IMG/VR virus record: IMGVR_UViG_2695420809_000014
Coordinates: 1 to 12,227 of that record
Length of the DNA stretch: 12,227 nt
Reading direction: 5' to 3' (one strand)
Source: a virus
Taxonomy: Duplodnaviria; Heunggongvirae; Uroviricota; Caudoviricetes
The position numbers and the translations under genes are program-made. The notes beneath the pieces were generated by a model. That model was not told the origin of the DNA, made no database searches, and saw only the letters and a program-made list of their open reading frames with translations. This document shows, piece after piece, positions 1 to 12,038 of the stretch (position 1 is its first letter; each line of letters starts with the position of its first letter).

Positions 1-558
1 TATCGCGTCCTCAACAATGAATTTTGTGATGCGGCGCCTGGTGCCTCCAGGTGACGTTAACCAGTAAACCATTAACGCCGGATTGTTAGTTGATGTCTGT
101 TACGCAAGTAAAAGACCGCTTGTTTTAACTGTTCCGCGTGCGCTGAGCCGCATTCACCGCATCACAAAATTCACTTTAAAAGGGGCGGGTATCACGGGAA
201 AAACAAAACGAATACCCGCCAAAAGGTAATCAACATGGGTTGTTGTAGCGGAGTTGTCACTCAGGCGTATGGTCAACCTGACAACCCGGTGTCCTCAACG
301 GGGAAGGAATAACCCCGCCATACTTACCGCCGCGCCATTTCGCGGAGTGCCACAACCGGAAGCGCACGGTCGACGAAAATTTAACGACAGGCTATCTATG
401 AACCAGCAACCTCGCCGTGCGCTTTCGCGTTATGCTCTGACTTTTCAGAGAAATATCCTTTCAGTAAACTGTCAGTGCCGGATGTTCACCCGTGTCCGGC
501 GCACGCACTCCACTTCACCCATGGAGAACTCCTTAATTACCAACCCTCAGGAGGGTGA

Positions 559-792
559 ATGTTAAAATCAACTCTTATTGCTAAATGCCTTTATCAAAAT
601 CGCATGGTAAGCAGCATTTCAATAGGCGAGTCTGCAGTTAAAAGTATTTTCGAAGAGTACTTTCCCGGGCATGATTTTAATAAATGGAATACCAAATTAC
701 CGCCAGCAGTTTCAACGCGTATTCTGAAAGCAACTGAAAGAGCAAGTACAATTCGCGTTAACTATTTCATTAAAGATTTGTGGGATCTTTGA
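559..792 (+). CDS. hypothetical protein, 77 aa
   Basis: ATG at 559 preceded by AGGAGG (549-554); third codon positions biased to A/T as expected for real coding sequence in a lower-GC segment; 3' end overlaps the convergent gene 770-1177 by 23 bp. No family recognised. Confidence 0.45.
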   Translation: MLKSTLIAKCLYQNRMVSSISIGESAVKSIFEEYFPGHDFNKWNTKLPPAVSTRILKATERASTIRVNYFIKDLWDL

Positions 793-1177
793 TATCCACA
801 GAGCCTAAAGTATGTGCATATGGATGTGCTATTGTGCGCCCTCGCAGATTTGCATCATTTTCTAAATTCACTGAACGAAACAGGGCATCAACAAGGCTCT
901 GTACAATGCAAAGGCAATCGAAGACTGTCGCCGTTTCTGTTTTGATTGATGAAAGAACATGGCCATTCACGCAAACAGAAATTACCCGTTTATTAACATC
1001 GCTTTCCTGCTTTTGATTATCAGAACCATATAGCCCAGAAAAAGCATTGCGCACATTACGAACCATATTATCGATGGTTTCTTTTTTGGTGTATGCCGGG
1101 TCAATTTTCACCAGACTATCACCGAGAGTCGTTGCAGCAATTGTCTGGATTTCTTTTGGTAAATCTTTAAATTCCAT
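770..1177 (-). CDS. hypothetical protein, 135 aa, distal gene of the leftward early operon
   Basis: ATG at 1177 with GAGG 6 nt upstream; separated by 22 bp from the stop of the upstream minus-strand gene (1200); about 41% GC versus about 50% for the surrounding phage backbone. No family recognised. Confidence 0.6.
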   Translation of the reverse strand: MEFKDLPKEIQTIAATTLGDSLVKIDPAYTKKETIDNMVRNVRNAFSGLYGSDNQKQESDVNKRVISVCVNGHVLSSIKTETATVFDCLCIVQSLVDALFRSVNLENDANLRGRTIAHPYAHTLGSVDIKDPTNL

Positions 1178-1199
1178 TATTAGCCTCGTTGGTTAGCTA

Positions 1200-1418
1200 T
1201 TAACGTGGGTATGTAATCATTCTGGCAATGCTTAATGCCGCTGCTTTTTCCAGATTGGTGATATCCTGCTCCAGAGCGGACAGATTTTCAGCCTGCTTAG
1301 CCCTGGCTTCATTGGCCCATTTCAGGTCCTGCGCAGCCTTAATTTTCTGGTGCATCCACTCATAAAGTTCATCATCGGTATAGTCTGGCGCGATGATGAC
1401 GGGTTCTCGTTTCTGCAT
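1200..1418 (-). CDS. hypothetical early-left protein, 72 aa, predicted helical/coiled-coil
   Basis: ATG at 1418 with GAGGA 6 nt upstream; packed in the same minus-strand operon as its neighbours. Confidence 0.6.
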   Translation of the reverse strand: MQKREPVIIAPDYTDDELYEWMHQKIKAAQDLKWANEARAKQAENLSALEQDITNLEKAAALSIARMITYPR

Positions 1419-1447
1419 ACTGATTCCTCGCGGTGCTGCTTCGCTTA

Positions 1448-1576
1448 TCAGCCGTTAGATTTTGCCGGGCTGGAAAGCGCCTGTTTAAATTCGCTGAAGC
1501 TGAGGGCTTCTTCGCCTTCGGCAAGGCCTTCGAAGTATTCTTCGTAAGCCTTTTCCATGATTGTGTCGAAATCCAT
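1448..1576 (-). CDS. small acidic protein, 42 aa (net charge about -7)
   Basis: ATG at 1576 preceded by AGGTGG with a 5-nt spacer; start lies 1 nt after the TGA of the upstream gene (translational coupling); not in the supplied ORF track because it is under 60 aa. Confidence 0.45.
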   Translation of the reverse strand: MDFDTIMEKAYEEYFEGLAEGEEALSFSEFKQALSSPAKSNG

Positions 1577-1577
1577 A

Positions 1578-1733
1578 TCACCCACCTGAATCTCTTTCCA
1601 GCCAGCGACGCGCTCCAGATTCGGTTTTAAACGTTTTGCTTTTGGTATACGTCATTGCGGTGAACGTGCCGTCCTGGTTTGGAAACACGCCGTACACCAG
1701 AGATTCGTTGTTGCCAAGATCGATAGTATCCAT
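1578..1733 (-). CDS. hypothetical early-left protein, 51 aa (alternative start at 1814 gives 78 aa)
   Basis: In-frame ATG at 1733 with GAGG 5 nt upstream; first gene downstream of the palindromic operator pair at 1919-1957; size and position resemble the small ydaF/ydaG-type genes of Rac-like prophages (recollection, not verified). Confidence 0.5.
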   Translation of the reverse strand: MDTIDLGNNESLVYGVFPNQDGTFTAMTYTKSKTFKTESGARRWLERDSGG

Positions 1734-1918
1734 GCTGACCTCATTCCCCCTTAACGCCGGGGTAGCGGAACAAAAACCTGCTGCATAGTTATTAAAGTTG
1801 AACCCTGCCGTCATGTTCTTACGCCTCGGGCTGGCTACTTAACCCCTGACCACTGCCGGGTAACTCGAAGTATTTCCCTGCGTTCTGTGGGGCGGGGTGG
1901 GTTGGTATGAAAAGAAGG

Positions 1919-1957
1919 ATACCCATGGGTATTTAAAAAGTAAATACCCATGGGTAA
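1919..1957. promoter_or_regulatory. OL-like operator pair: two 14-bp palindromes ATACCCATGGGTAT (1919-1932) and ATACCCATGGGTAA (1944-1957)
   Basis: Perfect and near-perfect palindromes 25 bp centre to centre, just downstream of the repressor gene stop and upstream of the leftward small-gene operon; same WTACC-N4-GGTAW pattern as the three sites in the repressor/cro-like intergenic region. Confidence 0.5.
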
Positions 1958-1998
1958 CTTTTTGCGGTGTCTTAACTGGTGACTAGTTGTTTGGTGAG

Positions 1999-2418
1999 CT
2001 ATGATGCGTTTTGTGCTTTCTTTTTACGGATTTCTTCGTAGATCATATTGTAATACTGTTTTTTCTCTTCAAGAGTTTTTAATAAGTTATCCGCTTCACT
2101 TTCTGGCAGTTCGTCTAAGAGATCTAAAAAAATACGTTGTCGTGGCGTTAGAACCCTTGTTTCATAACTGGAGGCTGTGTTCGTTGATGATGAAACGATA
2201 CCATCCATCCATCCCCGGGGTAACCCAAAGGACTCTTCGATAATCTCCACCATATCATCAGCGATCCGTTTTTTTCCCTTTTTCCCCTCTGGGTACAACA
2301 TTCTTGATACATAAGAAGGCTCGCGCCCGATCTTTCTGGCCACGTTAACCGCTTTACCATCGCATTTCTCATCACGAATTTTGATGAGTTGCTGTCGTCT
2401 AAATTCATATTTGTCCAT
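1999..2418 (-). CDS. phage repressor, short HTH type (RacR-like, 139 aa)
   Basis: N-terminal HTH-like segment (KAVNVARKIGREPSYVSRML); divergent from a Cro-like gene; no SD before the ATG and a TATTAT -10 hexamer 6 nt upstream, consistent with a leaderless maintenance transcript as for lambda cI. Confidence 0.8.
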   Translation of the reverse strand: MDKYEFRRQQLIKIRDEKCDGKAVNVARKIGREPSYVSRMLYPEGKKGKKRIADDMVEIIEESFGLPRGWMDGIVSSSTNTASSYETRVLTPRQRIFLDLLDELPESEADNLLKTLEEKKQYYNMIYEEIRKKKAQNAS

Positions 2419-2437
2419 AGGTAAATAATAGATGCGA

Positions 2438-2493
2438 TTACCGCAAGGTAAACAACCTGTGGGTATTGACTTTTGTTTACCTGTGGGTATTCT
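2438..2493. promoter_or_regulatory. OR-like region: three WTACC-N4-GGTAW sites (2438-2451, 2453-2466, 2477-2490) overlapping divergent promoters
   Basis: TTACCGCAAGGTAA, CAACCTGTGGGTAT and TTACCTGTGGGTAT; rightward promoter candidate TTGACT (2466-2471), 16-bp spacer, TATTCT (2488-2493); leftward -10 TATTAT (complement of 2425-2430). Confidence 0.55.
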
Positions 2494-2518
2494 TTGCTGT
2501 GTTTACTAAGGAGTAGCT

Positions 2519-2800
2519 ATGGAAGAATTAAGAATATTTCTCAATTCTCTTTCGTCAGATGAACAGCGTATGTTTGCATGCGAGTGTGGTACCAGCATCG
2601 GTTATCTAAGAAAGGCATTGAGTAAAGGTCAAGTGTTAGGGGCATCGTTATGTGTCCTTATTGAGCGAGCCAGTAATGGTGAAGTTACACGTCAGCAACT
2701 AAGGCCTTTTGATTGGATGAATATTTGGCCCGAGCTGGAAGATACCAAAACGTTAACACAACCACTTTCTAGGAGCTTGATTCATGAAAATCAAGCATGA
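2519..2800 (+). CDS. Cro-like HTH regulator, YdaS family-like (93 aa)
   Basis: ATG 2519 with AAGGAG and 5-nt spacer; C-terminal IERASNGEVTRQQLRPFDW resembles the YdaS/Cro-type motif; divergent from the repressor. Confidence 0.75.
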   Translation: MEELRIFLNSLSSDEQRMFACECGTSIGYLRKALSKGQVLGASLCVLIERASNGEVTRQQLRPFDWMNIWPELEDTKTLTQPLSRSLIHENQA

Positions 2801-3209
2801 ACACATCCGCATGGCGATGAATGCCTGGGCTCATTCGGACGGTGAAAAAGTTCCGGCAGCTGAAATAACCCAGTCTTATTTTGAGTTGGGTATGACGTTT
2901 CCTGAATTGTACGACGACAGCCATCCGGAAGCCCTGTCTCGTAATACCCAGAAAATTTTCCGCTGGGTAGAAAAAAACACCCCTGATGCGGTTAAAAAAA
3001 TTCAGGCGTTGTTACCGGCGATCGAAAAAGCAATGCCGCCTCCGCTGGTGGCCCGAATGCGCAGCCACAGTTCGGAATATCACCGGGAGCTTGTCGAGCG
3101 ACGGGAGCGCCTGGTGAAAGATATCGATGAGTTTGTTGCGGCAGCGATCGTGTTGTTCGATCAGATGAATCGTGGTGGTCCGGCGGGAAATGCCGTGGTG
3201 GCGCATTGA
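2784..3209 (+). CDS. YdaT-like protein (141 aa), CII-type regulator/toxin family
   Basis: Begins MKIKHEHI, which I recall as the YdaT family N-terminus; AGGAG upstream; overlaps the preceding gene by 17 bp. Confidence 0.7.
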   Translation: MKIKHEHIRMAMNAWAHSDGEKVPAAEITQSYFELGMTFPELYDDSHPEALSRNTQKIFRWVEKNTPDAVKKIQALLPAIEKAMPPPLVARMRSHSSEYHRELVERRERLVKDIDEFVAAAIVLFDQMNRGGPAGNAVVAH

Positions 3210-3229
3210 TAACGTGTTCTGGGGGGGGG

Positions 3230-4195
3230 ATGAAGCTCCTTTTTGCTGAACGTCCGCTGGTTATAAACACGCAGCTGGCGATGAAAATTGGTCTGAACGA
3301 AGCCATCGTGTTGCAGCAGTTGCATTACTGGTTGAGAGATACCGGTTCCGGCATGGAATGTGATGGTGTTCGCTGGATTTATAACACAACAGAACAATGG
3401 CTGGAGCAGTTCCCGTTCTGGTCAGAGTCAACGTTAAAACGCGCATTTGCAAGTCTGAAAACGCTGGGGCTTTTACGTTGCGAAAAGCTCAATAAATCAA
3501 AGCGTGATATGACTAATTTTTACACGATTAATTACGAGAGCGAGCTTTTAGATGGTGGCAAAGTGAGCGAATCCATCAGATCAAAATGCGCTGCTCCATC
3601 AGGTCAAAATGACACGATGGAAGAGGCCAAAATGGCACGTTCCATTGGTTCAAAACGACTCAATGTCATCGGGTCAAAATGGCCTGATGATCTTACAGAG
3701 AATACAACAGAGATTACTACAGAGAATAAAAACACTTCTCGTCCGGAAGCTTCGCAACCGGACCCGCAGACGGTTGAACAGGATTTTTTAACCCGACACC
3801 CTGACGCGGTTGTGTTCAGTGCAAAAAAACGCCAGTGGGGCAACCAGGAGGATTTGGCGTGTGCGCAGTGGATCTGGGGGCGAATCGTGAGTCTTTACGA
3901 GCAGGCCGCCAGCGATGATGGCGAGATTTCGCGACCGAAAGAACCCAACTGGACCGCATGGGCCAACGACGTGCGCACAATGCGGATGCTGGATGGCAGA
4001 ACTCACAGACAAATTTGTGAAATGTTTGGTCGGGTGCAGCGGGATCCATTCTGGGTAAAAAATATCATGAGTCCGTCAAAGCTTCGCGAAAAATGGGATG
4101 AACTGGTTATCCGCCTGGGGCGTTCGTCTGTACAGCGTTGTGTGAATCATATTTCTGAGCCGGATACCGAAATTCCGCCGGGGTTCAGGGGGTAA
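3230..4195 (+). CDS. replication initiation protein, O-like replisome organiser (YdaU position)
   Basis: ATG 3230 directly abuts a G9 tract (3221-3229); N-terminal winged-helix-like region; five about 23-bp-spaced iterons inside the coding sequence; followed by a DnaC-like gene. An in-frame TTG at 3206 is a less likely alternative start. Confidence 0.8.
   Translation: MKLLFAERPLVINTQLAMKIGLNEAIVLQQLHYWLRDTGSGMECDGVRWIYNTTEQWLEQFPFWSESTLKRAFASLKTLGLLRCEKLNKSKRDMTNFYTINYESELLDGGKVSESIRSKCAAPSGQNDTMEEAKMARSIGSKRLNVIGSKWPDDLTENTTEITTENKNTSRPEASQPDPQTVEQDFLTRHPDAVVFSAKKRQWGNQEDLACAQWIWGRIVSLYEQAASDDGEISRPKEPNWTAWANDVRTMRMLDGRTHRQICEMFGRVQRDPFWVKNIMSPSKLREKWDELVIRLGRSSVQRCVNHISEPDTEIPPGFRG
3574..3730. 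repeat. origin-like iteron array (5 copies, core TCAAAATG, about 23-bp period) plus AT-rich tract with three tandem 12-mers beginning ACAGAGA
   Basis: Iteron cores near 3581, 3604, 3628, 3651, 3674; AT-rich 12-mers at 3695-3730; located inside the O-like gene as in ori-lambda. Confidence 0.6.
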
Positions 4196-4201
4196 CGGGC
4201 C

Positions 4202-4948
4202 ATGAAAAATATCGCGACAGGTGGTGTTCTTGAGCGTATCCGTAAGCTGACCCCGCAGCATGTAATCGCGCCGTACCGGACAGTGGACGAGTGGCGCGAG
4301 TGGCAACTGGCAGAAGGGCGAAAACGTAGCGAGGAGATCAACCGCCAGAATCGCCAGTTGCGGGTGGAAAAAATCCTGAATCGTTCGGGCATCCAGCCTC
4401 TGCACAGCAAATGCTCGTTTGCGAATTATCAGGTGCAGAACGACGGGCAAAAACACGCGCTGAGCCAGGCAAAATCCATCGCTGACGAACTGATGACCGG
4501 GTGCACGAATTTTGTGTTCAGCGGTAAGCCGGGTACCGGAAAGAACCACCTTGCAGCCGCCATTGGCAATCATCTTCTGGCGAAAGGTCGCAGCGTGATT
4601 GTGATAACGGTGGCTGATGTGATGCTGGCGTTACACAACAGCTACGACAACAAAAACTCAGGCGAAAAATTTTTACAGGGGTTGTGTGATGTTGACCTGC
4701 TTGTCCTGGATGAAATCGGAATGCAGCGGGATACGCGCAACGAGCAGGTCACACTGAACCAGATAGTCGACCGCAGAACGGCTTCGATGCGTAGTGTCGG
4801 AATGCTGACGAACCTGAACCACGTAGCGATGAGTACGCTTCTTGGCGAGCGTGTGATGGACCGCATGGTCATGAACGGTGGTCGCTGGGTGAATTTTAAC
4901 TGGGAGAGCTGGCGTTCGAATGTCAGACACCTGAGGGTTGTGAAGTAA
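4202..4948 (+). CDS. DnaC-like helicase loader (IstB-type AAA+ ATPase; YdaV position)
   Basis: Walker A GKPGTGKNHLAAA and Walker B DLLVLDEIG; start 7 nt after the stop of the O-like gene. Confidence 0.9.
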   Translation: MKNIATGGVLERIRKLTPQHVIAPYRTVDEWREWQLAEGRKRSEEINRQNRQLRVEKILNRSGIQPLHSKCSFANYQVQNDGQKHALSQAKSIADELMTGCTNFVFSGKPGTGKNHLAAAIGNHLLAKGRSVIVITVADVMLALHNSYDNKNSGEKFLQGLCDVDLLVLDEIGMQRDTRNEQVTLNQIVDRRTASMRSVGMLTNLNHVAMSTLLGERVMDRMVMNGGRWVNFNWESWRSNVRHLRVVK

Positions 4949-4969
4949 TTTTGTCCGGAGGAAATTTTA

Positions 4970-5731
4970 ATGGAAACCGTTTTTGACGCACTGAAAGCAA
5001 TGGGAAAAGCCACATCGGTAGAACTGGCCGCGCGACTTGATATCAGTCGTGAAGAGGTTCTCAACGAGCTGTGGGAACTCAAAAGAAATGGCGTCGTTGA
5101 TAAAACTGGTCACACCTGGTTTCTGGCTGGCGAAAGTGAATCCCTGGTAACCGAAGAGCGGCCAGTAAAATCTGAAGCACAGGATATGCTGACCGGGGAG
5201 GTCGAACAAAAAGTTACCGCAGACATGATGATTGAGTTTATCGGTCAGGATGGGGCTAAAACGTGTGAGGAACTGGCGGGTAAGTTCGGCATCAGTACTC
5301 GCAAGGTTGCTTCCACGCTGGCGGTGGTAACCGCAACGGGGCGGCTGGCACGCGTTAATCAGAGCGGTAAATTTCGTTACTGCATGCCGGGCGGTAATTT
5401 ACCAGCAGAGCCGAAAGCAGCATCGGTAACGGAAAATGATGGTAAGACCTTTCCTCAGCCAGCAGGTGTTGCGTTACCAGTCCGGGAAGCCGCAACACAG
5501 GAAGAAATTAAAACAGAAACTGTAGCGGGCATTGTGCAGTCGCTGCCATCGTTTACTGAAACGCGAGCGGATGACCTGATTTTACCATCGCTGCATATGG
5601 CAAACCTCGAACTGCGTCGGGCGAAAAGTCATGTCCAGAAGTGGGAACGAGTCTGCGCCGCGCTGCGGGAGCTGAACAAGCACCGGGATATTCTTCGGGA
5701 TATTACCGCGACCGGAGAGCTGCAGCGGTGA
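4970..5731 (+). CDS. hypothetical protein with two winged-helix-like repeats (253 aa; YdaW position)
   Basis: GGAGG with 8-nt spacer before ATG 4970; repeated motif ([15 protein letters not shown]... and [15 protein letters not shown]...) suggests tandem wH domains; C-terminal helical segment. Confidence 0.7.
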
Positions 5732-6045
5732 GTGGCTGGAAGAAGTGGTACGAGGCTGAAATCATGATACTCCGTCAGTGTGCGGGAACGATGACGGTCG
5801 AAAGCATTGGGAGGCTGACCGGTCGTACAGGTGATGCTGTCAGAACGAAAGCGCGGGAACTGGGTGTCAGTCTGATGTTACGGGGTGATTATCACCAGTC
5901 AACAAAATATCCACAGAGTGATATTGAACTGGCGCGACAGCTGCATCAGCGTGGCGTACCCAGGAGAGAAATCGCCAGAAAATTTGGAATGCCGTTGCGC
6001 ACAGTGAATAACTACGTTTATTTCGACAGGAGAGTTCAGGAGTGA
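5728..6045 (+). CDS. HTH DNA-binding protein (about 105 aa)
   Basis: GTG 5728 overlaps the upstream stop as GTGA; HTH-like segment [22 protein letters not shown]; alternative start ATG 5764 with GAGG upstream. Confidence 0.6.
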
Positions 6046-6392
6046 GGGTGAGAGTTTATATTGCCGGTCCAATGACCGGGTATAAAAATTTCAACCGTGA
6101 GGCGTTCCACAAGGCGGAAGAGGAACTGAAACGGGAAGGGCATACAGTCTTGAACCCGGCAGTACTTCCGGACGGGCTGACACAGCCGCACTACATGGAT
6201 ATCTGCATGGCAATGATACGTAGCGTGGATGCGATTTATATGCTGAAAGACTGGCAACGGTCAGCAGGCGCTAAAGCGGAACTGGCTCTGGCGGAGAAGC
6301 TAGGGCATGTGGTTGTTTTTCAGAGGGGGGCGATATGCCGATTCTCTGGTTTCAGGAGGTGTGGGAAAAAGAAATGTGGGAAGGTCTTGTGA
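6042..6392 (+). CDS. DUF4406-like (nucleoside 2-deoxyribosyltransferase-like) protein
   Basis: N-terminal VYIAGPMTG motif typical of that fold; GTG 6042 overlaps the upstream stop as GTGA; alternative GTG at 6048. Confidence 0.65.
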   Translation: MRVRVYIAGPMTGYKNFNREAFHKAEEELKREGHTVLNPAVLPDGLTQPHYMDICMAMIRSVDAIYMLKDWQRSAGAKAELALAEKLGHVVVFQRGAICRFSGFRRCGKKKCGKVL

Positions 6393-6460
6393 TTGTGGCC
6401 GAAACAGTTCTTTTATTATGGTCTGTGATTGCGTGTATTTTTATGATTTATTGTGAATGA
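6335..6460 (+). CDS. small hydrophobic peptide, 41 aa (or 28 aa from ATG 6374)
   Basis: ATG 6335 follows GAGGGGGG; translation MPILWFQEVWEKEMWEGLVIVAETVLLLWSVIACIFMIYCE; overlaps the 3' end of the DUF4406-like gene in another frame; not in the ORF track. Confidence 0.3.
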   Translation: MPILWFQEVWEKEMWEGLVIVAETVLLLWSVIACIFMIYCE

Positions 6461-6485
6461 TGTGAATCTCGCGGTGGCCACTGAA

Positions 6486-6530
6486 TTGCAACCATTACCC
6501 CCTGTGATGTAATTGTGGGGTAATGGTTGC
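6486..6530 (+). promoter_or_regulatory. 14-bp perfect inverted repeat (6488-6501 / 6517-6530) with an embedded promoter-like TTGCAA-16 bp-TGTAAT
   Basis: GCAACCATTACCCC ... GGGGTAATGGTTGC; -35 candidate 6486-6491 in the left arm, -10 candidate 6508-6513 in the loop; lies upstream of the gene starting at 6564. Confidence 0.35.
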
Positions 6531-6563
6531 GCAGGCATAGCGACAGGACTGGATGAGAAAAAT

Positions 6564-6986
6564 ATGACGAAATTTACCAGAGAGCAATTGATTGCTCATG
6601 CTAATGAAAGTGTGAAATCCATGAAATTTGCTGCGCGACAGACCGTGTTTAAGACTTCAAGAGTTGCCATTGAAATGGATCTTGCGCTTGCCCGTATTGC
6701 GCTTGCCTCACTTGAAGCAATGCCAGTTGCATGGTCCTGTGCTCACAATATGGTTTTGTTCAATGCTGAATCTGTTGCGGCATACGCAAAACACTCAGCC
6801 ATTGCGCCAAAACCCCTGTACGCTGCGCAACCGGCATCACTTTCACATGAGGAAGAGTTGGCAATGCTGGTTAAACAATTGGTAAGTCAGTTGAAAAAAG
6901 CGAAACCAGATTGCAAATTACCGGATATGGCGATGGGGTATCTGGAGCGGAATGGGCTGATAAGCGCGGAGGATGTTTTACGATGA
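6564..6986 (+). CDS. hypothetical protein, 140 aa
   Basis: First ATG of the frame (the track's 6513 start is a TTG inside the inverted repeat); weak SD; Ala/Leu-rich helical composition. Confidence 0.65.
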   Translation: MTKFTREQLIAHANESVKSMKFAARQTVFKTSRVAIEMDLALARIALASLEAMPVAWSCAHNMVLFNAESVAAYAKHSAIAPKPLYAAQPASLSHEEELAMLVKQLVSQLKKAKPDCKLPDMAMGYLERNGLISAEDVLR

Positions 6987-7066
6987 CCTGGCCGGAGGCA
7001 TTCACAACGACAGGAATTGCAATGGCGGCAGCACTTGTTGTGTATTCGATTTGCAGCTGGGGATAA
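6983..7066 (+). CDS. small hydrophobic peptide, 27 aa
   Basis: ATG overlaps the upstream TGA as ATGA; MTWPEAFTTTGIAMAAALVVYSICSWG has one predicted transmembrane segment; not in the ORF track. Confidence 0.35.
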   Translation: MTWPEAFTTTGIAMAAALVVYSICSWG

Positions 7067-7277
7067 AAACGGTTTGCGGGGAAATCTTAGTTAAGTAGAA
7101 TGACTGCGGGTGCTTGAGGCTATCTGTCTCAGGCATGAACACCAAAAGGCAGATAGAGAAAAGCCCCAGTTAACATTACGCGTCCTGCACGACGCTTAAC
7201 ATTAATCTGAGGCCCAATCTATGTCTCACAAATGTAGGTTAGCCTCTTACGTGCCGAAAGGCAAGGAGAAGCAGGCT

Positions 7278-7433
7278 ATGAAGCAGCAAAAGGCGATGTT
7301 AATCGCCCTGATCGTCATCTGTTTAACCGTCATAGTGACGGCACTGGTAACGAGGAAAGACCTCTGCGAGGTACGAATCCGAACCGGCCAGACGGAGGTC
7401 GCTGTCTTCACAGCTTACGAACCTGAGGAGTAA
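7278..7433 (+). CDS. hokD: Hok/Gef-family type I toxin (51 aa)
   Basis: Translation MKQQKAMLIALIVICLTVIVTALVTRKDLCEVRIRTGQTEVAVFTAYEPEE matches my recollection of E. coli HokD/RelF; AAGGAG upstream; an in-frame ATG at 7221 would give a 70-aa extended form. Paralogue assignment is uncertain because no relBE is upstream. Confidence 0.85.
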   Translation: MKQQKAMLIALIVICLTVIVTALVTRKDLCEVRIRTGQTEVAVFTAYEPEE

Positions 7434-7503
7434 GAGACCCGGCGGGGGAGAAATCCCTCGCCACCGCTGATGTGTCAGGCATCCTCAACGCACCCGCACT
7501 TAA

Positions 7504-7529
7504 CCCGCTTCGGCGGGTTTTGTTTTTTC
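7504..7529 (+). terminator. intrinsic terminator at the hok transcript 3' end
   Basis: CCCGC-TTCG-GCGGG stem-loop followed by TTTTGTTTTTT. Confidence 0.7.
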
Positions 7530-7600
7530 TGGTCGTTCTGGTTTACAATTCGCACGCCAGCCTGAACAACTGGCACCTGCTGCGCCAGCAGAGACAACCG

Positions 7601-7879
7601 ATGGCGCACGATACCAAATTACACAATTCTGATGATTCTGCCGTCTTTGCCAGCAGGCACGGGCGGCGTTCCCGCACTTTCAAATCTGACTGGTTCCAGC
7701 ATCCCCCATGCACTGAAGAACAGGCCGAGTGGCTAATTCAGTGCTACCGCAGACACGGATACGAGATTAAGAAAGCCCTCAGCCTCGATTATCGTCACTG
7801 GATAATCTCCGTCAGGCTTCCTTACTCCGAGCGCCCACCGCGTCCGTCCCGCACATTCCAGCAACGCATCTGGAGGTAA
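7601..7879 (+). CDS. hypothetical protein, 92 aa
   Basis: First ATG downstream of the hok terminator in an ORF that ends 1 nt before the DUF968 gene start; weak SD. Confidence 0.5.
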   Translation: MAHDTKLHNSDDSAVFASRHGRRSRTFKSDWFQHPPCTEEQAEWLIQCYRRHGYEIKKALSLDYRHWIISVRLPYSERPPRPSRTFQQRIWR

Positions 7880-7880
7880 C

Positions 7881-8930
7881 GTGCGGGTATTACTTCGACC
7901 TGTTCTGGTACCGGAACTCGGGCTGGTGATCGTTAAGCCGGGCCGTGAATCCATGCCGGTATTCCACAATACCCGGGTACTGGTGGAGCCGGAACCGAAA
8001 AGCATGCGTAATCTGCCGTCCGGGGTTGTTCCTGCCGTTCACCAGCCGCTAGTGGAAGACAAAACATTGCTGCCGTTTTTCAGTAACGCACGGGTGATTC
8101 GTGCTGCTGGTGGTGCTGGTGCATTGTCTGACTGGCTGTTGCGCCATATTAAATCCTGCCAGTGGCCACACGGCGATTATCATCACAGCGAAACCGTCAT
8201 TCACCGTTATGGTACCGGCGCAATGGTGTTGTGCTGGCACTGCGACAACCAGCTGCGTGACCAGACATCCGAATCACTCGAGCAACTTGCTCATCAAAAC
8301 CTGTCAGCATGGATGATTGACGTCATCGGTCACGCAATAAGCGGTACGCAGGAGCGTGAATTATCTCTGGCTGAATTATCCTGGTGGGCGGTCTGCAATC
8401 AGGTGGCGGACGCGCTTCCGGAGGCAGTATTACGTCGTTCTCTGGGGTTACGTGCGGAAAAAATCCGCCCCTTGTACCGCGAAAGCGACATCGTACCGGG
8501 AGAGCAGACCGCCATCAGCATACTGAAACAGCGCACAAAAAATCTTGCGCCGCTGCCTCACGCCCACCAGCAACAGAACCCACCACAGGAAAAGACGGTG
8601 GTCAGCATTGCCGTTGATCCTGAGCCTCCGGAATCTTTCATGAAACGACCTAAACGTCGCCGCTGGGTTAACGAGAAATACACACGCTGGGTGAAGACAC
8701 AGCCGTGTGCGTGTTGTGGTAAGCCAGCCGACGATCCCCATCACCTGATTGGTCATGGTCAGGGCGGAATGGGGACAAAATCTCACGATATTTTCACGCT
8801 ACCGCTGTGTCGGGAGCATCACAACGAGCTTCATGCGGATCCGCTGGCGTTCGAAGAAAAGCATGGTTCTCAGGTTGATTTAATTTTTCGTTTTCTTGAT
8901 CACGCCTTTGCAACTGGCGTGCTTGGGTAA
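7881..8930 (+). CDS. DUF968-like protein (YdfU-like, 349 aa), C-terminal Cys/His HNH-like motif
   Basis: GTG 7881 with GGAGG upstream; C-terminal CACCG...HHLIGHG...CREHHNELH cluster. Confidence 0.75.
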   Translation: MRVLLRPVLVPELGLVIVKPGRESMPVFHNTRVLVEPEPKSMRNLPSGVVPAVHQPLVEDKTLLPFFSNARVIRAAGGAGALSDWLLRHIKSCQWPHGDYHHSETVIHRYGTGAMVLCWHCDNQLRDQTSESLEQLAHQNLSAWMIDVIGHAISGTQERELSLAELSWWAVCNQVADALPEAVLRRSLGLRAEKIRPLYRESDIVPGEQTAISILKQRTKNLAPLPHAHQQQNPPQEKTVVSIAVDPEPPESFMKRPKRRRWVNEKYTRWVKTQPCACCGKPADDPHHLIGHGQGGMGTKSHDIFTLPLCREHHNELHADPLAFEEKHGSQVDLIFRFLDHAFATGVLG

Positions 8931-8942
8931 AAGAGGTGACTG

Positions 8943-9299
8943 ATGCTCATAGATTTGGTTTTACCTTACCCGCCGACGGTGAACACTTACTGGCGACGCC
9001 GTGGCAGCACATATTTTATCTCGGAGGAGGGAAAGCGTTATCGCCGGGCTGTGGCGTTTATTGTTCGCCAGCAGCGGCTGAAATTAAGCCTGTCCGGAAG
9101 GCTGGCGATAAAGGTGATTGCAGAGCCACCGGATAAGCGTCGTCGCGACCTGGACAACATTCTGAAAGCACCGCTGGATGCGCTGACGCATGCGGGAGTG
9201 TTAATGGACGATGAGCAGTTTGATGAAATCAATATCGTTCGTGGTCAGCCAGTATCTGGTGGACGTCTGGGGGTGAAGATTTACCCCATAATGCATTAA
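8943..9299 (+). CDS. rusA: RusA-family Holliday junction resolvase
   Basis: Conserved PDKRRRDLDN, DALTHAG and GGRL segments; size 118 aa; GAGGTG before ATG 8943. Confidence 0.85.
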   Translation: MLIDLVLPYPPTVNTYWRRRGSTYFISEEGKRYRRAVAFIVRQQRLKLSLSGRLAIKVIAEPPDKRRRDLDNILKAPLDALTHAGVLMDDEQFDEINIVRGQPVSGGRLGVKIYPIMH

Positions 9300-9313
9300 G
9301 AGCAGGTCAAAAA

Positions 9314-10135
9314 ATGAAACTGGAAGATTTACCGAAATACTACTCCCCAAAATCCCCTGGCCTGACCGATGCATCGGCCTCAACGTCAAAAGATGCGCTG
9401 AGTATCACTGATGTGATGGCCGCGCAGGGCATGACACAGAATCGGGCTGAGATGGGTTTTTCTGCGTTCCTGGGGAAAATGGGCATCAGTATGAATGACA
9501 GGGCGCGGGCAACAGAATTACTGGCAGATTATGCACTCAGTCGGTGCGATCGTGTGGCGGCGTTGAGAAAACTTCCGGCAGAAATAAAACCGGTAGTGAT
9601 GCGCATTATGGCTTCGTACGCTTTTGAGGATTATGCCCGCAGCGCAGCGAGTAAAAAGCAGTGCCCTTGTTGCTATGGGGAAAAATTTATTGAAAGCATA
9701 GTTTTTACAAACAAGGTCCAGTATCCGGATGGTAAGCCGCCGGTATGGGCAAAGTGTACGAAAGGTGTGTATCCGTCTTACTGGGAAGAATGGAAAAAAG
9801 TCAGGGAGGTGGTAAAAGTTGCCTGTCCGGAGTGTGGCGGAAAGGGTGAGGTTTCCACCGCCTGTAAGGATTGCCGTGGGCGTGGTGTCGCCATTCATCG
9901 TGAAGAGTCGGTAAAACGTGGTATGCCTGTTATCAGAGACTGCCAGCGTTGTGGTGGTCGTGGCTATGAAAGACTACCATCAACGGAGGCATTTAATGCT
10001 ATATGCGAGGTGACAAACCAGATAACACGCGCGTCATGGGAAAAAACAGTTAAGAAATTTTATGATGCGCTGGTGACCCGGTTTGATATTGAAGAAGCAT
10101 GGGCTGAGCGGCAGTTAAAAAAGGTAACTAGGTAA
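9314..10135 (+). CDS. late-gene antiterminator Q-like protein with four CxxCxGxG zinc-finger repeats
   Basis: Sits immediately upstream of a pR'-like promoter and tR'-like terminator; CPCCYGEKF, CPECGGKGE, CKDCRGRGV, CQRCGGRGY motifs; resembles Qin-type Q homologues from memory. Confidence 0.6.
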   Translation: MKLEDLPKYYSPKSPGLTDASASTSKDALSITDVMAAQGMTQNRAEMGFSAFLGKMGISMNDRARATELLADYALSRCDRVAALRKLPAEIKPVVMRIMASYAFEDYARSAASKKQCPCCYGEKFIESIVFTNKVQYPDGKPPVWAKCTKGVYPSYWEEWKKVREVVKVACPECGGKGEVSTACKDCRGRGVAIHREESVKRGMPVIRDCQRCGGRGYERLPSTEAFNAICEVTNQITRASWEKTVKKFYDALVTRFDIEEAWAERQLKKVTR

Positions 10136-10140
10136 CAAGG

Positions 10141-10168
10141 TTGATTTTTCCGGAATCTGTGGTAAATT
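10141..10168 (+). promoter_or_regulatory. pR'-like late promoter
   Basis: TTGATT (10141-10146), 16-bp spacer, TG-extended TAAATT (10163-10168), 5 nt after the Q-like stop. Confidence 0.5.
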
Positions 10169-10215
10169 CGTCATAACGATGGGCGTTTTATGCCTGACGT
10201 TAGAAGAGTTTCTAC

Positions 10216-10241
10216 AACCCGCCGCTGAGCGGGTTTTTTAT
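10216..10241 (+). terminator. tR'-like intrinsic terminator
   Basis: AACCCGC-CGCTGA-GCGGGTT stem-loop followed by TTTTTT, about 50 nt downstream of the promoter. Confidence 0.65.
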
Positions 10242-10278
10242 TGCGAAATTAATTACGGACCGTTATTATTCTGCTCCC

Positions 10279-10354
10279 GGCCCTTTAGCTCAGTGGTGAG
10301 AGCGAGCGACTCATAATCGCCAGGTCGCTGGTTCAAATCCAGCAAGGGCCACCA
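10279..10354 (+). tRNA. tRNA with CAT anticodon, closest to the lysidine-type tRNA-Ile2 (ileZ/ileX-like); tRNA-Met not excluded
   Basis: 7-bp acceptor stem GGCCCTT/AAGGGCC, D-arm GCTCAGTGGTGAGAGC, anticodon loop CTCATAA, T-arm GGTTCAAATCC, encoded CCA. Confidence 0.8.
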
Positions 10355-10455
10355 TCACAAACCGCCATTAGCTTATCAGGAAGAGCAGACGACACGATAA
10401 CAGGGTTGTTGGTGCGGGGGGCGGGTCCCCGATGGCGGTCCATTATCGGTATTCA

Positions 10456-10532
10456 GCGTTGTTAGCTCAGCCGGACAGAGCAATTGCCTTCTAAGCAATC
10501 GGTCACTGGTTCGAATCCAGTACAGCGCGCCA
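10456..10532 (+). tRNA. tRNA-Arg (TCT anticodon, argU/argN-like)
   Basis: Acceptor stem GCGTTGT/ACAGCGC, anticodon loop CTTCTAA, T-arm GGTTCGAATCC, encoded CCA; close to E. coli argU by eye. Confidence 0.85.
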
Positions 10533-10642
10533 TATTCATTCTTCCAGATTCCTTCCGGCAGAGCCTTATACTGAAATATACCTGGCTCAGGATATTGTTG
10601 AAAATATTATATGTTTGTCAAAAATAAAAGTTCTGTTAAGTA

Positions 10643-10996
10643 TTGATTGAATATTTGTTATACGGTCTAATGGTTTTTTCAGCATTAAATATTTATCATT
10701 CATATGGTGTGGGTAGAGTGAATATTGATGAGGCGTCGGGGTGTTTCATCCTTAGGCAGCGTATTGATATAGTCAATGCAGCACGAGCAAAGGCCTTCAG
10801 CCGTTTGACAGTTTTGTTCTGTACTCCTGATCGTCTTTCGGGAAGAGACGTTATTATTCTGAATAGTGATGCTATACAGAGGGTTTGCGATGAGTTCATG
10901 GTTGCTAATTCAGAATTATTTGCTCTTGTTCAGGAGTACAACAGAATAGCCAGGACCTGTGGTATGGATGAACTTCGGATTACTCATCTGGGGTAG
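10643..10996 (+). CDS. hypothetical protein in the AT-rich cargo segment (117 aa from TTG 10643; 108 aa from ATG 10670), hydrophobic N-terminus
   Basis: Longest ORF in the cargo; frequent ATA, AGA and AGG codons; no convincing SD at either start, so the call is tentative. Confidence 0.4.
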   Translation: MIEYLLYGLMVFSALNIYHSYGVGRVNIDEASGCFILRQRIDIVNAARAKAFSRLTVLFCTPDRLSGRDVIILNSDAIQRVCDEFMVANSELFALVQEYNRIARTCGMDELRITHLG

Positions 10997-11076
10997 ATAC
11001 ATATCTGGATTATCACCTGTTACGGTAAAAAGTGATTGCTTACTGTTTTTGTGAATGGCATTGCAGCAGCCGGATA

Positions 11077-11163
11077 ATGTCAGTGCTGGCTGACGGTGTG
11101 CTGGTGGCGGGTGTGGTGGTTGTTGCTTTCCCGTTGCTGAAAAAGAAAACGCCAGACTGTTAG
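11077..11163 (+). CDS. possible small hydrophobic peptide, 28 aa
   Basis: MSVLADGVLVAGVVVVAFPLLKKKTPDC: hydrophobic core then a KKK tail; weak SD (GGAT); not in the ORF track. Confidence 0.2.
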   Translation: MSVLADGVLVAGVVVVAFPLLKKKTPDC

Positions 11164-11389
11164 CCGGGTATCAGTTAGCGGGAGAAATTTTTAAATACTT
11201 CACAATTCAGGCGGTTGACTGTTGTCTGGTTTGCGGGGAGTTTGTTAAAAGAAACTGGCATGGTGAATCCCCCTGTGCGGAGGGGCAATCAGCGAGTAGG
11301 TATATGGGATAATCGCGGATTCAGGTGCTGGTACTGAATTCACCGGGAGGCACCCGGCACCATGCAATGGCACATAGCGCCACTCTCCA

Positions 11390-11416
11390 GCCCCTCTCCG
11401 GAGGGGCTGTTTATAT
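11390..11416 (+). terminator. candidate intrinsic terminator
   Basis: GCCCCTC-TCCG-GAGGGGC stem-loop followed by a T-rich tract (TGTTTATATTGATTTT). Confidence 0.4.
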
Positions 11417-11443
11417 TGATTTTGTCAGATGTGAGTAAACTCC

Positions 11444-11779
11444 TTATGGATTTTGTTGTTTTAGCCCATAAGGACATATTTGCAGAGTGCAACGGTTATT
11501 AAAGCATTCATTCAATACGTTATCTGTATTTGTAGGGCATTCCTGGCTGTTTTTGATTAAATTCCAGAATGTTTTATTGAATGGTACTATGTTGTAAATG
11601 GTTACAGGTAGCACTTTGTTATTGAGCATGATACCTGTGTGAGTCAGTGTAAATATACTTTCAGGAGGTAAGAAAGCATCCGATTGATACCAGATTATTA
11701 ATTTTATTTTACTCCATATGACTGAAAAAGATATTCCGCATGATGGCTGGATAACTGTATCAATCACAATCCACTTCAT
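11444..11779 (-). CDS. hypothetical protein, 111 aa, in the AT-rich cargo
   Basis: ATG 11779 with AAGGAAA 5 nt upstream; transcribed opposite to the late operon; Trp-rich N-terminal half and Cys-containing C-terminal half; no family recognised. Confidence 0.6.
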
Positions 11780-12038
11780 TTACTTTCCTTGTTTATGCCT
11801 TGCTGGTGATGTTCTGAAAAGTATAAATGATATTTTTGAATTAAACCATAGAGCAGAATTATTTTTCTGATGTTGTTTATTGTTTATTTAAATACAGGGT
11901 GGTTTATATCTCGTCTTGTAGTTTATCCATGCATATCTGCTTGATAATCAGGTTTTTATTTAAGGTATGGTTTTGTGTTTTTTCTGTATTACATGTCAGG
12001 TATTTTAAAGAATTATTTTTCAGATGGTGGAAAGAACC

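Follow-up and report, generated by a model that had tools for sequence, protein, structure and literature searches.

GTGA-linked, exchangeable accessory genes in an Escherichia coli Rac-type lambdoid prophage

Chained genes and their setting

The DNA from position 4970 to 6460 carries ordinary small, swappable accessory genes of an E. coli Rac-type lambdoid prophage. It belongs to IMG/VR record IMGVR_UViG_2695420809_000014, of which positions 1 to 12,227 were analyzed; this whole 12,227-nt stretch is called the window. RefSeq holds a 99.9%-identical sequence annotated in E. coli chromosomes. Dozens of E. coli genomes already carry annotation for the DNA of the chained genes, whose proteins belong to catalogued families of unknown function. 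The features used below are listed here by window position.

4202-4948, upstream of ydaW: DnaC-like gene (PF01695)
4970-5731, plus strand: ydaW-type gene, DUF1627, 253 aa (Pfam PF07789, phrog_630, RefSeq DUF1627)
5714-5719, plus strand: Shine-Dalgarno-like GGAGAG, 8 to 10 nt 5' of GTG 5728, within the ydaW coding sequence
5728-5731, plus strand: GTGA junction 1, in which TGA 5729-5731 ends ydaW and GTG 5728-5730 begins the HTH gene
5728-6045, plus strand: gene for a double-HTH protein, 105 aa (Pfam, phrog_323, homologue alignment)
6028-6032, plus strand: Shine-Dalgarno-like AGGAG, 9 nt 5' of GTG 6042
6042-6045, plus strand: GTGA junction 2, in which TGA 6043-6045 ends the HTH gene and GTG 6042-6044 begins the DUF4406 gene
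6042-6392, plus strand: DUF4406 gene, 116 aa (PF14359), with a core of residues 1-95 (6042-6326) and then a 20-residue tail
6325-6330, plus strand: poly-G run of 6 G, immediately after the DUF4406 core, which sets the reading frame of the tail
6335-6460, plus strand: 41-aa hydrophobic ORF containing a single hydrophobic helix; the purine-rich G run lies 5' of it
6488-6530, plus strand: perfect 14-bp inverted repeat with a loop of 15 nt, situated between the chained genes and the next gene
9314-10135, downstream, same strand as the chained genes: Q antiterminator (PF03589)

Upstream of the chained genes lie genes for a cI-like repressor, a cro-like gene, YdaT, an O-like protein, and a DnaC-like protein, and downstream lie hok/sok, DUF968, RusA, and Q. 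The gene spacings of the operon are, in order, -17, +20, +6, +21, -4, and -4, followed by +1, +12, and +14. No promoter-like or terminator-like site was found on the plus strand between 4700 and 7300. Since there is no consensus promoter or terminator inside the stretch, the chained genes would all be carried on the rightward early transcript. The inverted repeat at 6488-6530 (GCAACCATTACCCC ... GGGGTAATGGTTGC) marks the 3' end of the tightly chained block. The RNA fold of 6455-6565 around it has an energy of -36.6 kcal/mol (z = -3.0), and the repeat was not scored as an intrinsic terminator, since it has no T-run. Minus-strand ORFs at 4967-5209, 5899-6072, and 6036-6257 were considered as antisense genes and rejected; they are unannotated, and promoter-like matches were no more frequent than expected by chance.

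The gene order resembles that of the Rac prophage of E. coli K-12 and of Rac-SA53, namely, ydaS/T-like genes, ydaU (O-like), ydaV (DnaC-like), ydaW, a small gene, and DUF4406. Their ydaW genes are ~88 to 90% identical to that of the window at the nucleotide level. In Rac-SA53, where the series is ydaW-lygF-rac19, the start of rac19, the DUF4406 gene, lies at this same GTGAGGGT junction, whereas the middle gene, lygF, cannot be aligned with the HTH gene. In many prophages of E. coli and Salmonella, the middle position is filled by a DUF977-family gene of comparable length.

The segment is also similar to the lambda nin region (ninR). Both are flanked by the replication genes (O, P or DnaC-like) and by Q, both belong to the rightward early transcript, and both consist of small ORFs with overlapping or abutting stop and start codons and exchangeable content. 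However, none of ninB to ninI is present in this stretch, with RusA and DUF968 placed further downstream, and the overlaps here use GTG (GTGA), whereas those of lambda nin are ATGA. The nin region of lambda is dispensable, and Kroger and Hobom (Gene, 1982), as relayed by PMC7166090 and PMC10695390, described it as "a chain of interlinked genes."

Stop/start overlaps and start codons

Both overlaps claimed in an earlier note on this DNA are real, in the sequence as well as in the ORF list. Junction 1 reads ...CAGCG-GTGA-GTGG and junction 2 reads ...CAGGA-GTGA-GGGT, and the listed ORFs (4970-5731, 5641/5728-6045, and 6042-6392) end and start exactly at the two GTGA motifs. Junction 1 is kept in most of 72 distinct related loci, together with two different ydaW C-terminal variants, and a few relatives have TAA or TAG 2 to 6 nt upstream instead. 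Because the overlaps are conserved at ~80 to 86% nucleotide identity and with different upstream genes, they are not the product of chance.

The overlaps could still be artefacts of ORF calling if the real starts were ATG 5764 and GTG 6048, which would leave gaps of 32 and 2 nt and give each gene its own Shine-Dalgarno site. PGAP, the source of the RefSeq annotation, does use ATG 5764 in the 99.9%-identical sequence, yielding a protein of 93 aa, which is also the length of many database entries of the family, and GAGG lies 8 nt before this ATG. However, W7 and E11 of the HTH protein are invariant and A10 and I12 are nearly so among 24 homologues from several genera, and all four residues are encoded upstream of ATG 5764 and would be lost. 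GTG 5728 is in frame with the HTH gene and is preceded by GGAG at 5714-5717, and the PHROG alignment of the protein begins at residue 4. Strain FY26 has CTG in place of ATG 5764, and its HTH gene is annotated from the overlap; the annotated start of phage D6 orf90 likewise lies at an overlap. More distant homologues begin M-S-K-W, two residues before the invariant tryptophan. The RefSeq start at ATG 5764 is probably wrong, hiding the overlap and dropping two invariant residues.

At junction 2 there is a 6-nt tandem repeat, GTGAGG-GTGAGA, whose first copy holds GTGA 6042-6045, and GTG 6048 is therefore a formal alternative start. A second AGGAG (6038-6042) could serve this GTG, 5 nt away, and initiation there gives M-R-V-Y-I, the usual N-terminal length of the DUF4406 family. 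Against this, the second GTG is replaced by GTA or GTT in Rac-SA53 and one further locus (L141), and relatives and alleles without the 6-nt repeat retain only the GTGA start of DUF4406. The relatives support GTG 5728 and GTG 6042 as the true starts. A start at GTG 6048 in this particular allele is possible, and an artefactual origin of both overlaps is most unlikely.

Translational coupling at the GTGA junctions, which the earlier note had proposed, is plausible by analogy and a reasonable reading of them. Four-nucleotide overlaps are the classic termination-reinitiation arrangement, and strict coupling was seen in 13 of the 14 pairs tested (PMC6728339). The junctions share with the -4 overlaps of Huber et al. 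(2019, 2023) the NTGA geometry and a Shine-Dalgarno-like motif inside the upstream gene, but those were ATGA and TGATG pairs of cellular genes, whereas these are GTGA pairs in a prophage. A ribosome ending at the TGA would sit on the GTG of the next ORF and reinitiate, as at known -4 overlaps. In this way, short genes whose GTG starts are weak could be expressed with no gap between them. The overlap would serve compact, polar expression and would not be a sign of a three-protein complex.

Predicted proteins and the 3' end of the block

YdaW matches PF07789 with an E value of 2.4e-96 (320 bits against a cut-off of 28.1; residues 91-245 cover model positions 1-155 of 155) and phrog_630 with an E value of 7e-135. 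Its layout comprises two HTH/winged-helix-like units (residues ~4-39 and 84-132), a long linker, and a long C-terminal helix (206-252). Segments 2-50 and 84-137 each gave several sub-threshold HTH/winged-helix-type matches, those to Pfam families falling on residues 2-50 and 87-135. The AlphaFold model, which is of low confidence (mean pLDDT 51), was built on a shallow alignment of 85 to 92% identical sequences and used for secondary structure only; it places helices at 4-11, 16-23, and 27-39 and at 84-94, 99-106, and 110-123, forming two three-helix units with no confident beta wings. The tandem winged-helix architecture first suggested is supported in part, by the two HTH-like units.

The second unit also resembles the Ren-like family phrog_142, but weakly (residues 84-137 to profile positions 14-68 of 116, E = 3.6e-6, with no single stretch passing), and lambda ren occupies the same position as ydaW, directly after the helicase-loader gene. 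A PADLOC search with YdaW returned weak CARF/Csa3-type HTH matches only. In an overexpression screen, ydaW was a blocker of the retron-Sen2 toxin (bioRxiv 10.1101/2020.06.22.160242), and a review notes that NDT-like effectors occur in retron systems; a link between these two observations was rejected as unsupported.

The middle protein had been called an HTH protein, and two such units were found by Pfam and among its profile relatives: an N-terminal Myb/GcrA-like unit (~4-50) and a C-terminal HTH_23 or sigma-70 region-4-like unit (~58-100). Residues 60-98 match Pfam HTH_23, Sigma70_r4_2, and HTH_7, all below threshold, and the protein matches phrog_323 from residue 4 with an E value of 4.5e-28. 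The N-terminal half alone had no Pfam match. A profile search with the HTH protein retrieved 1194 cluster representatives, many with 2 to 14 repeated stretches, and among six relatives scanned against Pfam the multi-repeat ones carry Myb, GcrA, or HTH_23 domains; the Myb/GcrA-like label is given because these distant repeat-containing relatives have such domains. PADLOC gave no defence-family match for the HTH or DUF4406 protein, and NCBIfam has no family for either of them, for the 41-aa ORF, or for the downstream orf140. YdaW and the double-HTH protein are predicted to be early DNA-binding accessory proteins.

For the third protein, the Pfam profile bears out the proposed DUF4406 assignment (PF14359, E = 3.5e-37, 127.1 bits against a cut-off of 22; residues 4-93 cover model positions 2-91 of 91). 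In an alignment of 30 sequences there are 21 invariant columns, all of which are present in the window protein and which include Y6, D53, S74, G76, and E80. The conserved motifs YIAGPM-G, NR, LNP, YMD, and S-x-G-A-x-x-E are likewise present. Homologues are typically 95 to 101 aa long, and the AlphaFold model has a pLDDT of 76 overall, 83 to 90 over most of residues 1-95, and <50 for 96-116.

A nucleoside 2-deoxyribosyltransferase (NDT)-like fold had also been put forward, and the model agrees with it. In a Foldseek search of the PDB, the top 19 matches are NDTs or MilB, with DNPH1 and BcmB lower down (E = 9e-6 to 1e-2; query TM-score 0.6 to 0.69, with NDTs, MilB, and DNPH1 at ~0.65 to 0.69; target-normalised ~0.5). 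As modelled, the DUF4406 core is a minimal NDT/DNPH1-like alpha/beta fold, shared with DNPH1/Rcl, the NDTs, and the CMP N-glycosidases MilB and BcmB. There is no significant sequence similarity to any of these enzymes, and the link is at the level of fold only. The match to PF05014 is below membership (15 bits against a cut-off of 28.8, E = 0.029), a PDB sequence search and an alignment-profile search returned nothing meaningful, and BLASTP of the core against human DNPH1 gave no match (E = 2.9). The core has 95 aa and the matched enzyme chains have 119 to 163, and a C-terminal part is therefore missing. In NDTs, this C-terminal part completes the active site.

A trimmed DUF4406 profile aligned to DNPH1 by hhalign over the full length, non-significantly (E = 0.17), and served as a consistency check only. 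In this alignment, Y-x-x-G near the N terminus and S-x-G-x-x-x-E line up, pairing Y6 with Y24, S74 with S98, G76 with G100, and E80 with E104 of DNPH1, the last of which is the DNPH1 nucleophile; D53 falls 2 positions off D80, beside a gap. The DNPH1 sequence was checked against PDB entry 8qhr. A further hhalign run, with the untrimmed alignment against a Lactobacillus NDT sequence, gave a meaningless alignment and was discarded. The DUF4406 protein is predicted to act on a deoxynucleotide or nucleoside as an N-glycosidase or transferase; DNPH1 would be its nearest counterpart, and Glu80 would serve as nucleophile. This prediction also draws on phage relatives of DUF4406 that carry a fused dATP/dGTP diphosphohydrolase domain, as judged from BFVD structure matches, or match MazG-like families. 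In the literature searched, no activity was shown for any DUF4406 protein, and the family is mentioned only in passing. DUF4406, with its minimal NDT/DNPH1 fold, is very widespread in temperate phages and could be assayed at little cost.

The tail of the DUF4406 protein (residues 96-116) is unconserved, predicted to be disordered, and aberrant in comparison with rac19 of Rac-SA53. The length of the preceding poly-G run varies among near-identical relatives; in an alignment of nine loci, two (L021 and L025) have one G fewer and two (L024 and L027) have insertions. Alternative tails occur among the relatives, giving proteins of 116 aa (P0001) or 134 to 138 aa (P0002 and P0003). The small hydrophobic ORF noticed at the 3' end is present, and it overlaps only this unconserved tail. 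It travels with the downstream 140-aa ORF and not with DUF4406, it has an in-frame 15-nt deletion in L024, and the GC content drops to 0.41 to 0.44 from ~6300. The 41-aa ORF is probably a separate small gene of the next, lower-GC module. It is absent from the RefSeq annotation, it matched nothing in the family libraries, and tblastn against 50,697 phage records returned no match.

Exchange of the genes and competing explanations

The distribution of the three genes was compared across prophages. IMG/VR yielded 65 distinct DUF4406 loci: the trio is found at 20 of them, ydaW but no HTH gene at 11, and neither partner at the remaining 34; among 54 distinct HTH-gene loci, the trio is the commonest context, found in 40. 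In 5426 complete E. coli genomes, the HTH gene occurs in 770, DUF4406 in 1172, and the ydaW 3' end in 2042. The ydaW-HTH junction is present in 616 and the HTH-DUF4406 junction in 549, and in the HTH-bearing genomes a ydaW-family gene adjoins the HTH gene in ~80% and DUF4406 does so in ~71%. Pooling the loci anchored on DUF4406 with those anchored on the HTH gene gave 94 distinct ones; directly upstream of DUF4406, they carry the HTH gene in 47 cases, a DUF977 gene in 46, and a hybrid in 1, always with a -4 overlap.

Other elements vary further. The arrangement in Salmonella is DUF977-ATGA-DUF4406, behind three different replication modules; a Mu-like phage has an unrelated 71-aa gene-GTGA-DUF4406; and in a Klebsiella phage-plasmid a gene for a 204-aa protein precedes DUF4406 with a 2-nt gap. 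DUF4406 is accompanied by neither ydaW nor the HTH gene in these Salmonella, Klebsiella, and Mu-like elements. The HTH gene in turn has no ydaW or DUF4406 relative within 4 kb at six loci of other Enterobacterales genera (L164-L169). A one-genome-per-species scan with the HTH alignment gave 8 loci, one of them marginal, which show no conserved neighbours and are too few for statistics.

Homology with DUF977-DUF4406 prophages breaks at window position 6039-6042, and another breakpoint lies at ~5691-5697. At the level of sequence, these comparisons demonstrate that the GTGA junctions are boundaries of cassette exchange between prophages. Because the same junctions are the exchange boundaries, the overlap moves along with the cassette that follows it, irrespective of the gene before it. 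This movement, which coincides with recombination breakpoints, illustrates how modules of mosaic phages can be swapped while their boundaries stay functional.

We consider it likely, with a probability of about 0.78, that the region is the start of a nin-like accessory segment made of three exchangeable cassettes, probably with a fourth, that are coupled for compact expression and do not form a three-protein complex. The cassettes would be ydaW/DUF1627, the 105-aa double-HTH protein, and the minimal DUF4406 protein, with the 41-aa membrane ORF probably as the fourth, and the segment from the replication genes to Q of a Rac-type lambdoid prophage would begin with them as independent units. The frequent adjacency of the HTH gene to ydaW and DUF4406 in E. 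coli, together with the reversed order of the HTH and DUF4406 genes in phage D6, could nevertheless reflect a functional link and not shared descent alone. Little changes for biology at large, since the stretch is a textbook-style mosaic accessory region. The 4-nt overlaps in such regions are a warning against reading them as evidence of complexes.

The earlier note had read the overlaps as a sign of fixed stoichiometry, and a corresponding explanation is a fixed-ratio trio in which the two DNA-binding proteins would guide the NDT-like enzyme to DNA of the phage or host, there to serve base modification or anti-defence. Its attractions are the two consecutive -4 overlaps, the prevalence of the trio among HTH-gene loci (40/54) and of both junctions among HTH-bearing genomes (616/770 and 549/770), and the effect of ydaW on the retron-Sen2 toxin. 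Closely spaced gene pairs of E. coli are 4.5-fold enriched for complex subunits, but only 30% of such pairs encode them and ~70% do not (PMC10666635). The genes also occur independently, an observation that the earlier note had named as refuting its reading: 45 of the 65 distinct DUF4406 loci are without the HTH gene and 34 of these also without ydaW, DUF977 replaces the HTH gene, and the HTH gene is partnerless in other genera. The overlap persists when the partner changes, and co-occurrence with adjacency across lineages, as seen for operon-encoded complex subunits, was not found. With the PADLOC results adding no defence family for two of the proteins and weak CARF/Csa3-type matches for YdaW, the trio is very unlikely, and the claim of fixed stoichiometry was given up in favor of independent cassettes.

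A narrower alternative leaves ydaW aside as unrelated and joins DUF4406 to a coupled small nucleic-acid-binding protein, double-HTH or DUF977, as a DNA-targeted N-glycosidase or base-exchange enzyme. One or the other of these two genes precedes DUF4406 with a 4-nt overlap at 93 of 94 E. coli-type loci, the DUF977-DUF4406 pair is kept in Salmonella behind the three replication modules, and the HTH and DUF4406 genes adjoin in both orders, forward in Rac-like prophages and reversed in phage D6, as DUF4406 (203 aa)-GTGA-HTH. However, the sampled loci are closely related prophages, and the adjacency of DUF4406 to the HTH or DUF977 gene may therefore be inheritance. DNA binding by DUF977 is conjectural, its only other Pfam match being a weak one to DUF3489; the genes upstream of DUF4406 in the Mu-like phage and the Klebsiella phage-plasmid are of other kinds; and the HTH gene is often found without DUF4406. 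We regard this pair as unlikely. A more specific form, which is highly improbable, makes DUF4406 a minimal DNPH1-like N-glycosidase that is active or targeted only with its interchangeable coupled partner (double-HTH here, DUF977 elsewhere) and that excises or exchanges a DNA base or destroys a nucleotide immune signal early in infection. If true, phages would have in this partner-dependent pair a new two-part module for counter-defence or DNA modification. Against a DNA-targeted pair, the fusions of phage DUF4406 relatives to dNTP pyrophosphatase-type domains point to free nucleotides and not to DNA.

Prophage setting of the gene chain

According to an ORF map and family searches, the window is the rightward early operon of a lambdoid prophage. 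The features are listed below.

Features of the window
1999-2418, minus strand: cI-like repressor (ORF map and family searches)
2519-2800: cro-like gene (ORF map and family searches)
2784-3209: YdaT-family gene (ORF map and family searches)
3230-4195: O-like gene (ORF map and family searches)
4202-4948: DnaC/IstB-like helicase loader, directly before ydaW, the HTH gene and the DUF4406 gene
4970-5731: ydaW (DUF1627)
5728-6045: middle gene of the chain, HTH protein
6042-6392: DUF4406 gene
6335-6460: 41-aa hydrophobic ORF, overlapping solely the unconserved DUF4406 tail
6488-6530: perfect 14-bp inverted repeat, 15-nt loop, in the gap between the 41-aa ORF and the next gene
6564-6986: 140-aa ORF, 3' of the three-gene chain
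7108-7433: hok/sok type I toxin-antitoxin locus (sok at 7108-7283 by Rfam), followed by DUF968 and RusA, in that order, before Q
9314-10135: Q antiterminator, then two tRNA genes
10279-10354: tRNA-Met (CAT), just 3' of Q
10456-10532: tRNA-Arg (TCT), just 3' of Q
11229-11418: sRNA family STnc100 (strong Rfam match, 132 bits), 3' of Q and the tRNA genes

The first gene of the chain is ydaW (DUF1627) of the Rac prophage, and the chain has the same layout as the lambdoid nin region, between the replication genes and Q. Passages of PMC7166090 and PMC10695390 describe that region as dispensable and as having been called "a chain of interlinked genes" in 1982. The feature is an ordinary, already annotated example of a known region type. 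The 1.6 kb around the chain is 99.3-99.9% identical to about two dozen complete E. coli chromosomes, where the matching copies sit within integrated prophage, and parts of it are ~88-90% identical to Rac-SA53 and other Rac-like phages. The closest complete genome, AST240 (locus L002), matches the window through DUF968; beyond this it has another antiterminator gene and lacks RusA (window 8943-10135 versus L002 13042-13794), making the window itself mosaic relative to its nearest neighbors. The Hok-like ORF ends at 7433, and its counterpart in a matching genome is annotated hokD. Genes for DUF1627, RusA and TerB are typical neighbors of prophage Pas sRNAs (2026 preprint).

Family assignments of the three proteins

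The family assignments made in the earlier note were confirmed or refined. YdaW (253 aa) matches DUF1627 (E = 2.4e-96). The tandem winged-helix architecture proposed for it is plausible, since residues 2-50 and 87-135 each draw many HTH/winged-helix matches and its AlphaFold model has two three-helix units, with long linkers and a 47-residue C-terminal helix. It is not demonstrated: every one of those matches is sub-threshold, and the shallow alignment behind the model gave a low-quality prediction (mean pLDDT, 51). Residues 84-137 also weakly match a "Ren-like exclusion protein" PHROG. YdaW is on a list of uncharacterized prophage transcription factors (PMC9308461), and ydaW was among the blockers of the retron-Sen2 toxin in one overexpression screen (bioRxiv 10.1101/2020.06.22.160242).

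The middle protein (105 aa) is an HTH protein, as claimed, and consists of two tandem HTH units. The HTH in its C-terminal half is similar to HTH_23, sigma-70 region 4 and resolvase HTH domains; the N-terminal half, searched alone against Pfam, gave no match. A profile search with the family returned 1194 cluster representatives, many with 2-14 copies of either half. In a Pfam scan of six of the listed relatives, the ones with several repeats had Myb-like, GcrA-like and HTH_23 domains at corresponding positions, which supports the two-unit description. Among the distant relatives, database entries P0366, P0371 and others are 400-1600 aa long, with up to 14 tandem ~45-residue Myb/GcrA/HTH_23-like units.

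The third protein is a clear DUF4406 member (E = 3.5e-37), so the profile search supports this assignment. At 116 aa it compares with 95-101 aa for typical members, and Tyr6, Asp53, Ser74, Gly76 and Glu80 are invariant in the alignment. In its AlphaFold model, residues 1-95 are confident and 96-116 disordered. The best PDB matches of the model are nucleoside 2-deoxyribosyltransferases, the CMP N-glycosidases MilB and BcmB, and DNPH1, bearing out the proposed deoxyribosyltransferase-like fold; no significant sequence similarity to these enzymes was found. In a full-length but non-significant hhalign alignment, Y6, S74, G76 and E80 pair with DNPH1 Y24, S98, G100 and E104, the last of which is the DNPH1 nucleophile. 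The DNPH1 sequence had been confirmed beforehand against PDB 8qhr. Some viral structural relatives carry a dATP/dGTP diphosphohydrolase domain in the same polypeptide, and the protein also has matches among MazG-like PHROGs; together these point to free deoxynucleotides as the predicted substrates. The literature searched reports no function for DUF4406.

Stop/start overlaps and exchange of partners

GTGA occurs at 5728-5731 and 6042-6045, its TGA closing one ORF and its GTG in frame with the next. These overlaps, claimed from the sequence, are present and conserved; because relatives keep the same starts, chance in the ORF calls does not account for them. For the middle gene of a 99.9%-identical sequence, RefSeq/PGAP instead takes ATG 5764 as the start (WP_001509842.1, 93 aa). 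GTG 5728 is favored over this start on several grounds. An alignment of 24 homologues (Escherichia, Salmonella, Enterobacter, Pantoea and others) shows no variation at Trp7 and Glu11 and almost none at Ala10 and Ile12, and the codons for all four lie 5' of ATG 5764; the match to PHROG 323 already starts at residue 4; strain FY26 has CTG in place of ATG 5764, and its gene is annotated from the overlap; and the annotation of orf90 in the P1-like phage D6 also begins at an overlap. GGAG at 5714-5717 is suitably spaced as a ribosome-binding site for GTG 5728. A start at ATG 5764 would remove the invariant Trp7 and Glu11 (window 5728-5766). Many database entries of the family are only 93 or 84 aa because their start was likewise called too late. 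At the DUF4406 start, a 6-nt tandem duplication (GTGAGG GTGAGA, 6042-6053) makes GTG 6048 a possible alternative. In Rac-SA53 and locus L141 the second GTG is replaced by GTA or GTT, and single-copy alleles retain only the GTGA start.

On the plus strand between 4700 and 7300, no promoter-like or terminator-like site was found, so that a single early transcript is the simplest reading; it would carry all three genes. Termination-reinitiation would couple translation at both GTGA junctions. Since 13 of 14 tested pairs with 4-nt overlaps showed strict termination-reinitiation (PMC6728339), coupling may fairly be inferred for this chain. Coupling alone does not imply a protein complex: subunits of one complex make up 30.4% of closely spaced E. 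coli gene pairs, and the remaining 69.6% are otherwise (PMC10666635). The prior is lower still here because partners are swapped.

This exchange was seen in genome counts and at individual loci. Among 5426 complete E. coli genomes, the HTH gene was counted in 770, the window's DUF4406 subfamily in 1172 and the ydaW 3' end in 2042; probes spanning the ydaW-HTH and HTH-DUF4406 junctions were counted in 616 and 549, respectively. Distinct IMG/VR loci anchored on DUF4406 contained the trio in 20/65 cases, ydaW with another gene in 11/65 and neither partner in 34/65. Those anchored on the HTH gene held the trio (40/54), ydaW-HTH only (11/54) or the HTH gene alone (3/54). With both sets combined into 94 distinct loci, the gene 5' of DUF4406 was the HTH gene (47/94), a 131-aa DUF977 gene (46/94) or a hybrid (1/94), and a 4-nt overlap joined it to DUF4406 in all 94. 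Where the neighbor differs, homology breaks either right at the GTGA (6039-6042) or at ~5691-5697. The overlap is therefore part of the downstream cassette's 5' end and outlasts a change of partner.

Other hosts extend this pattern. Salmonella prophages carry DUF977-ATGA-DUF4406 after three different replication modules, Mu-like elements join an unrelated 71-aa gene to DUF4406 through GTGA, and a Klebsiella phage-plasmid has a further, different gene there. Phage D6 and relatives reverse the window order, with a 203-aa DUF4406, bearing an additional C-terminal domain, followed through GTGA by an HTH homologue 76% identical (L177 [phage D6], 1887-2812; L171-L176, 3001-3926). The same pair, at enterobacterial identity levels, lies on a 3.2-kb contig labeled "MAG: Actinomycetes bacterium" (L163), which is probably mis-binned or a contaminant. 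In the Erwinia, Citrobacter, Pantoea, Pluralibacter and Superficieibacter loci, the HTH gene has no relative of ydaW or DUF4406 nearer than 4 kb. In L165, L167 and L169 the HTH gene directly follows replication genes, and more distant homologues in Serratia and Vibrio phages sit amid unrelated small ORFs.

The partner changes indicate that the three genes are separate cassettes. The functional reading of the trio, as a fixed-stoichiometry unit for DNA modification or anti-defense, is not supported. A narrower proposal, that DUF4406 forms a two-part enzyme with the small protein encoded upstream, would account for the two orders in which the HTH and DUF4406 genes adjoin and for the near-constant presence of one of two small proteins before DUF4406. 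The HTH gene in E. coli is mostly beside a ydaW-family gene (47 to 100% identical to that of the window). Descent, with few cassettes available at this position, may alone give all these patterns. We regard the two-part enzyme as quite unlikely.

The 3' end of the chain

Homology with ordinary DUF4406 genes ends at ~6309-6323, and a six-G run (6325-6330) lies directly 3' of the last conserved codon. Its length varies across otherwise near-identical prophage loci, shifting the frame of the tail, which explains why the unconserved tails differ (a protein of 116 aa in the window versus 134-138 aa in other database entries). Either phase variation or sequencing noise could underlie the differences in run length.

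The small hydrophobic ORF noted at the 3' end does overlap DUF4406, within the unconserved tail. It co-occurs with the 140-aa ORF that follows it rather than with DUF4406, and lies where GC falls from ~0.52 to ~0.42; its frame is kept in one relative despite a 15-nt deletion. It had no match in the databases searched and no RefSeq annotation, and is probably a putative small gene of the next module. The inverted repeat at 6488-6530 forms a stable predicted RNA fold (z = -3.0) without a T-run; it could act in processing or stability, or as a site for protein binding.
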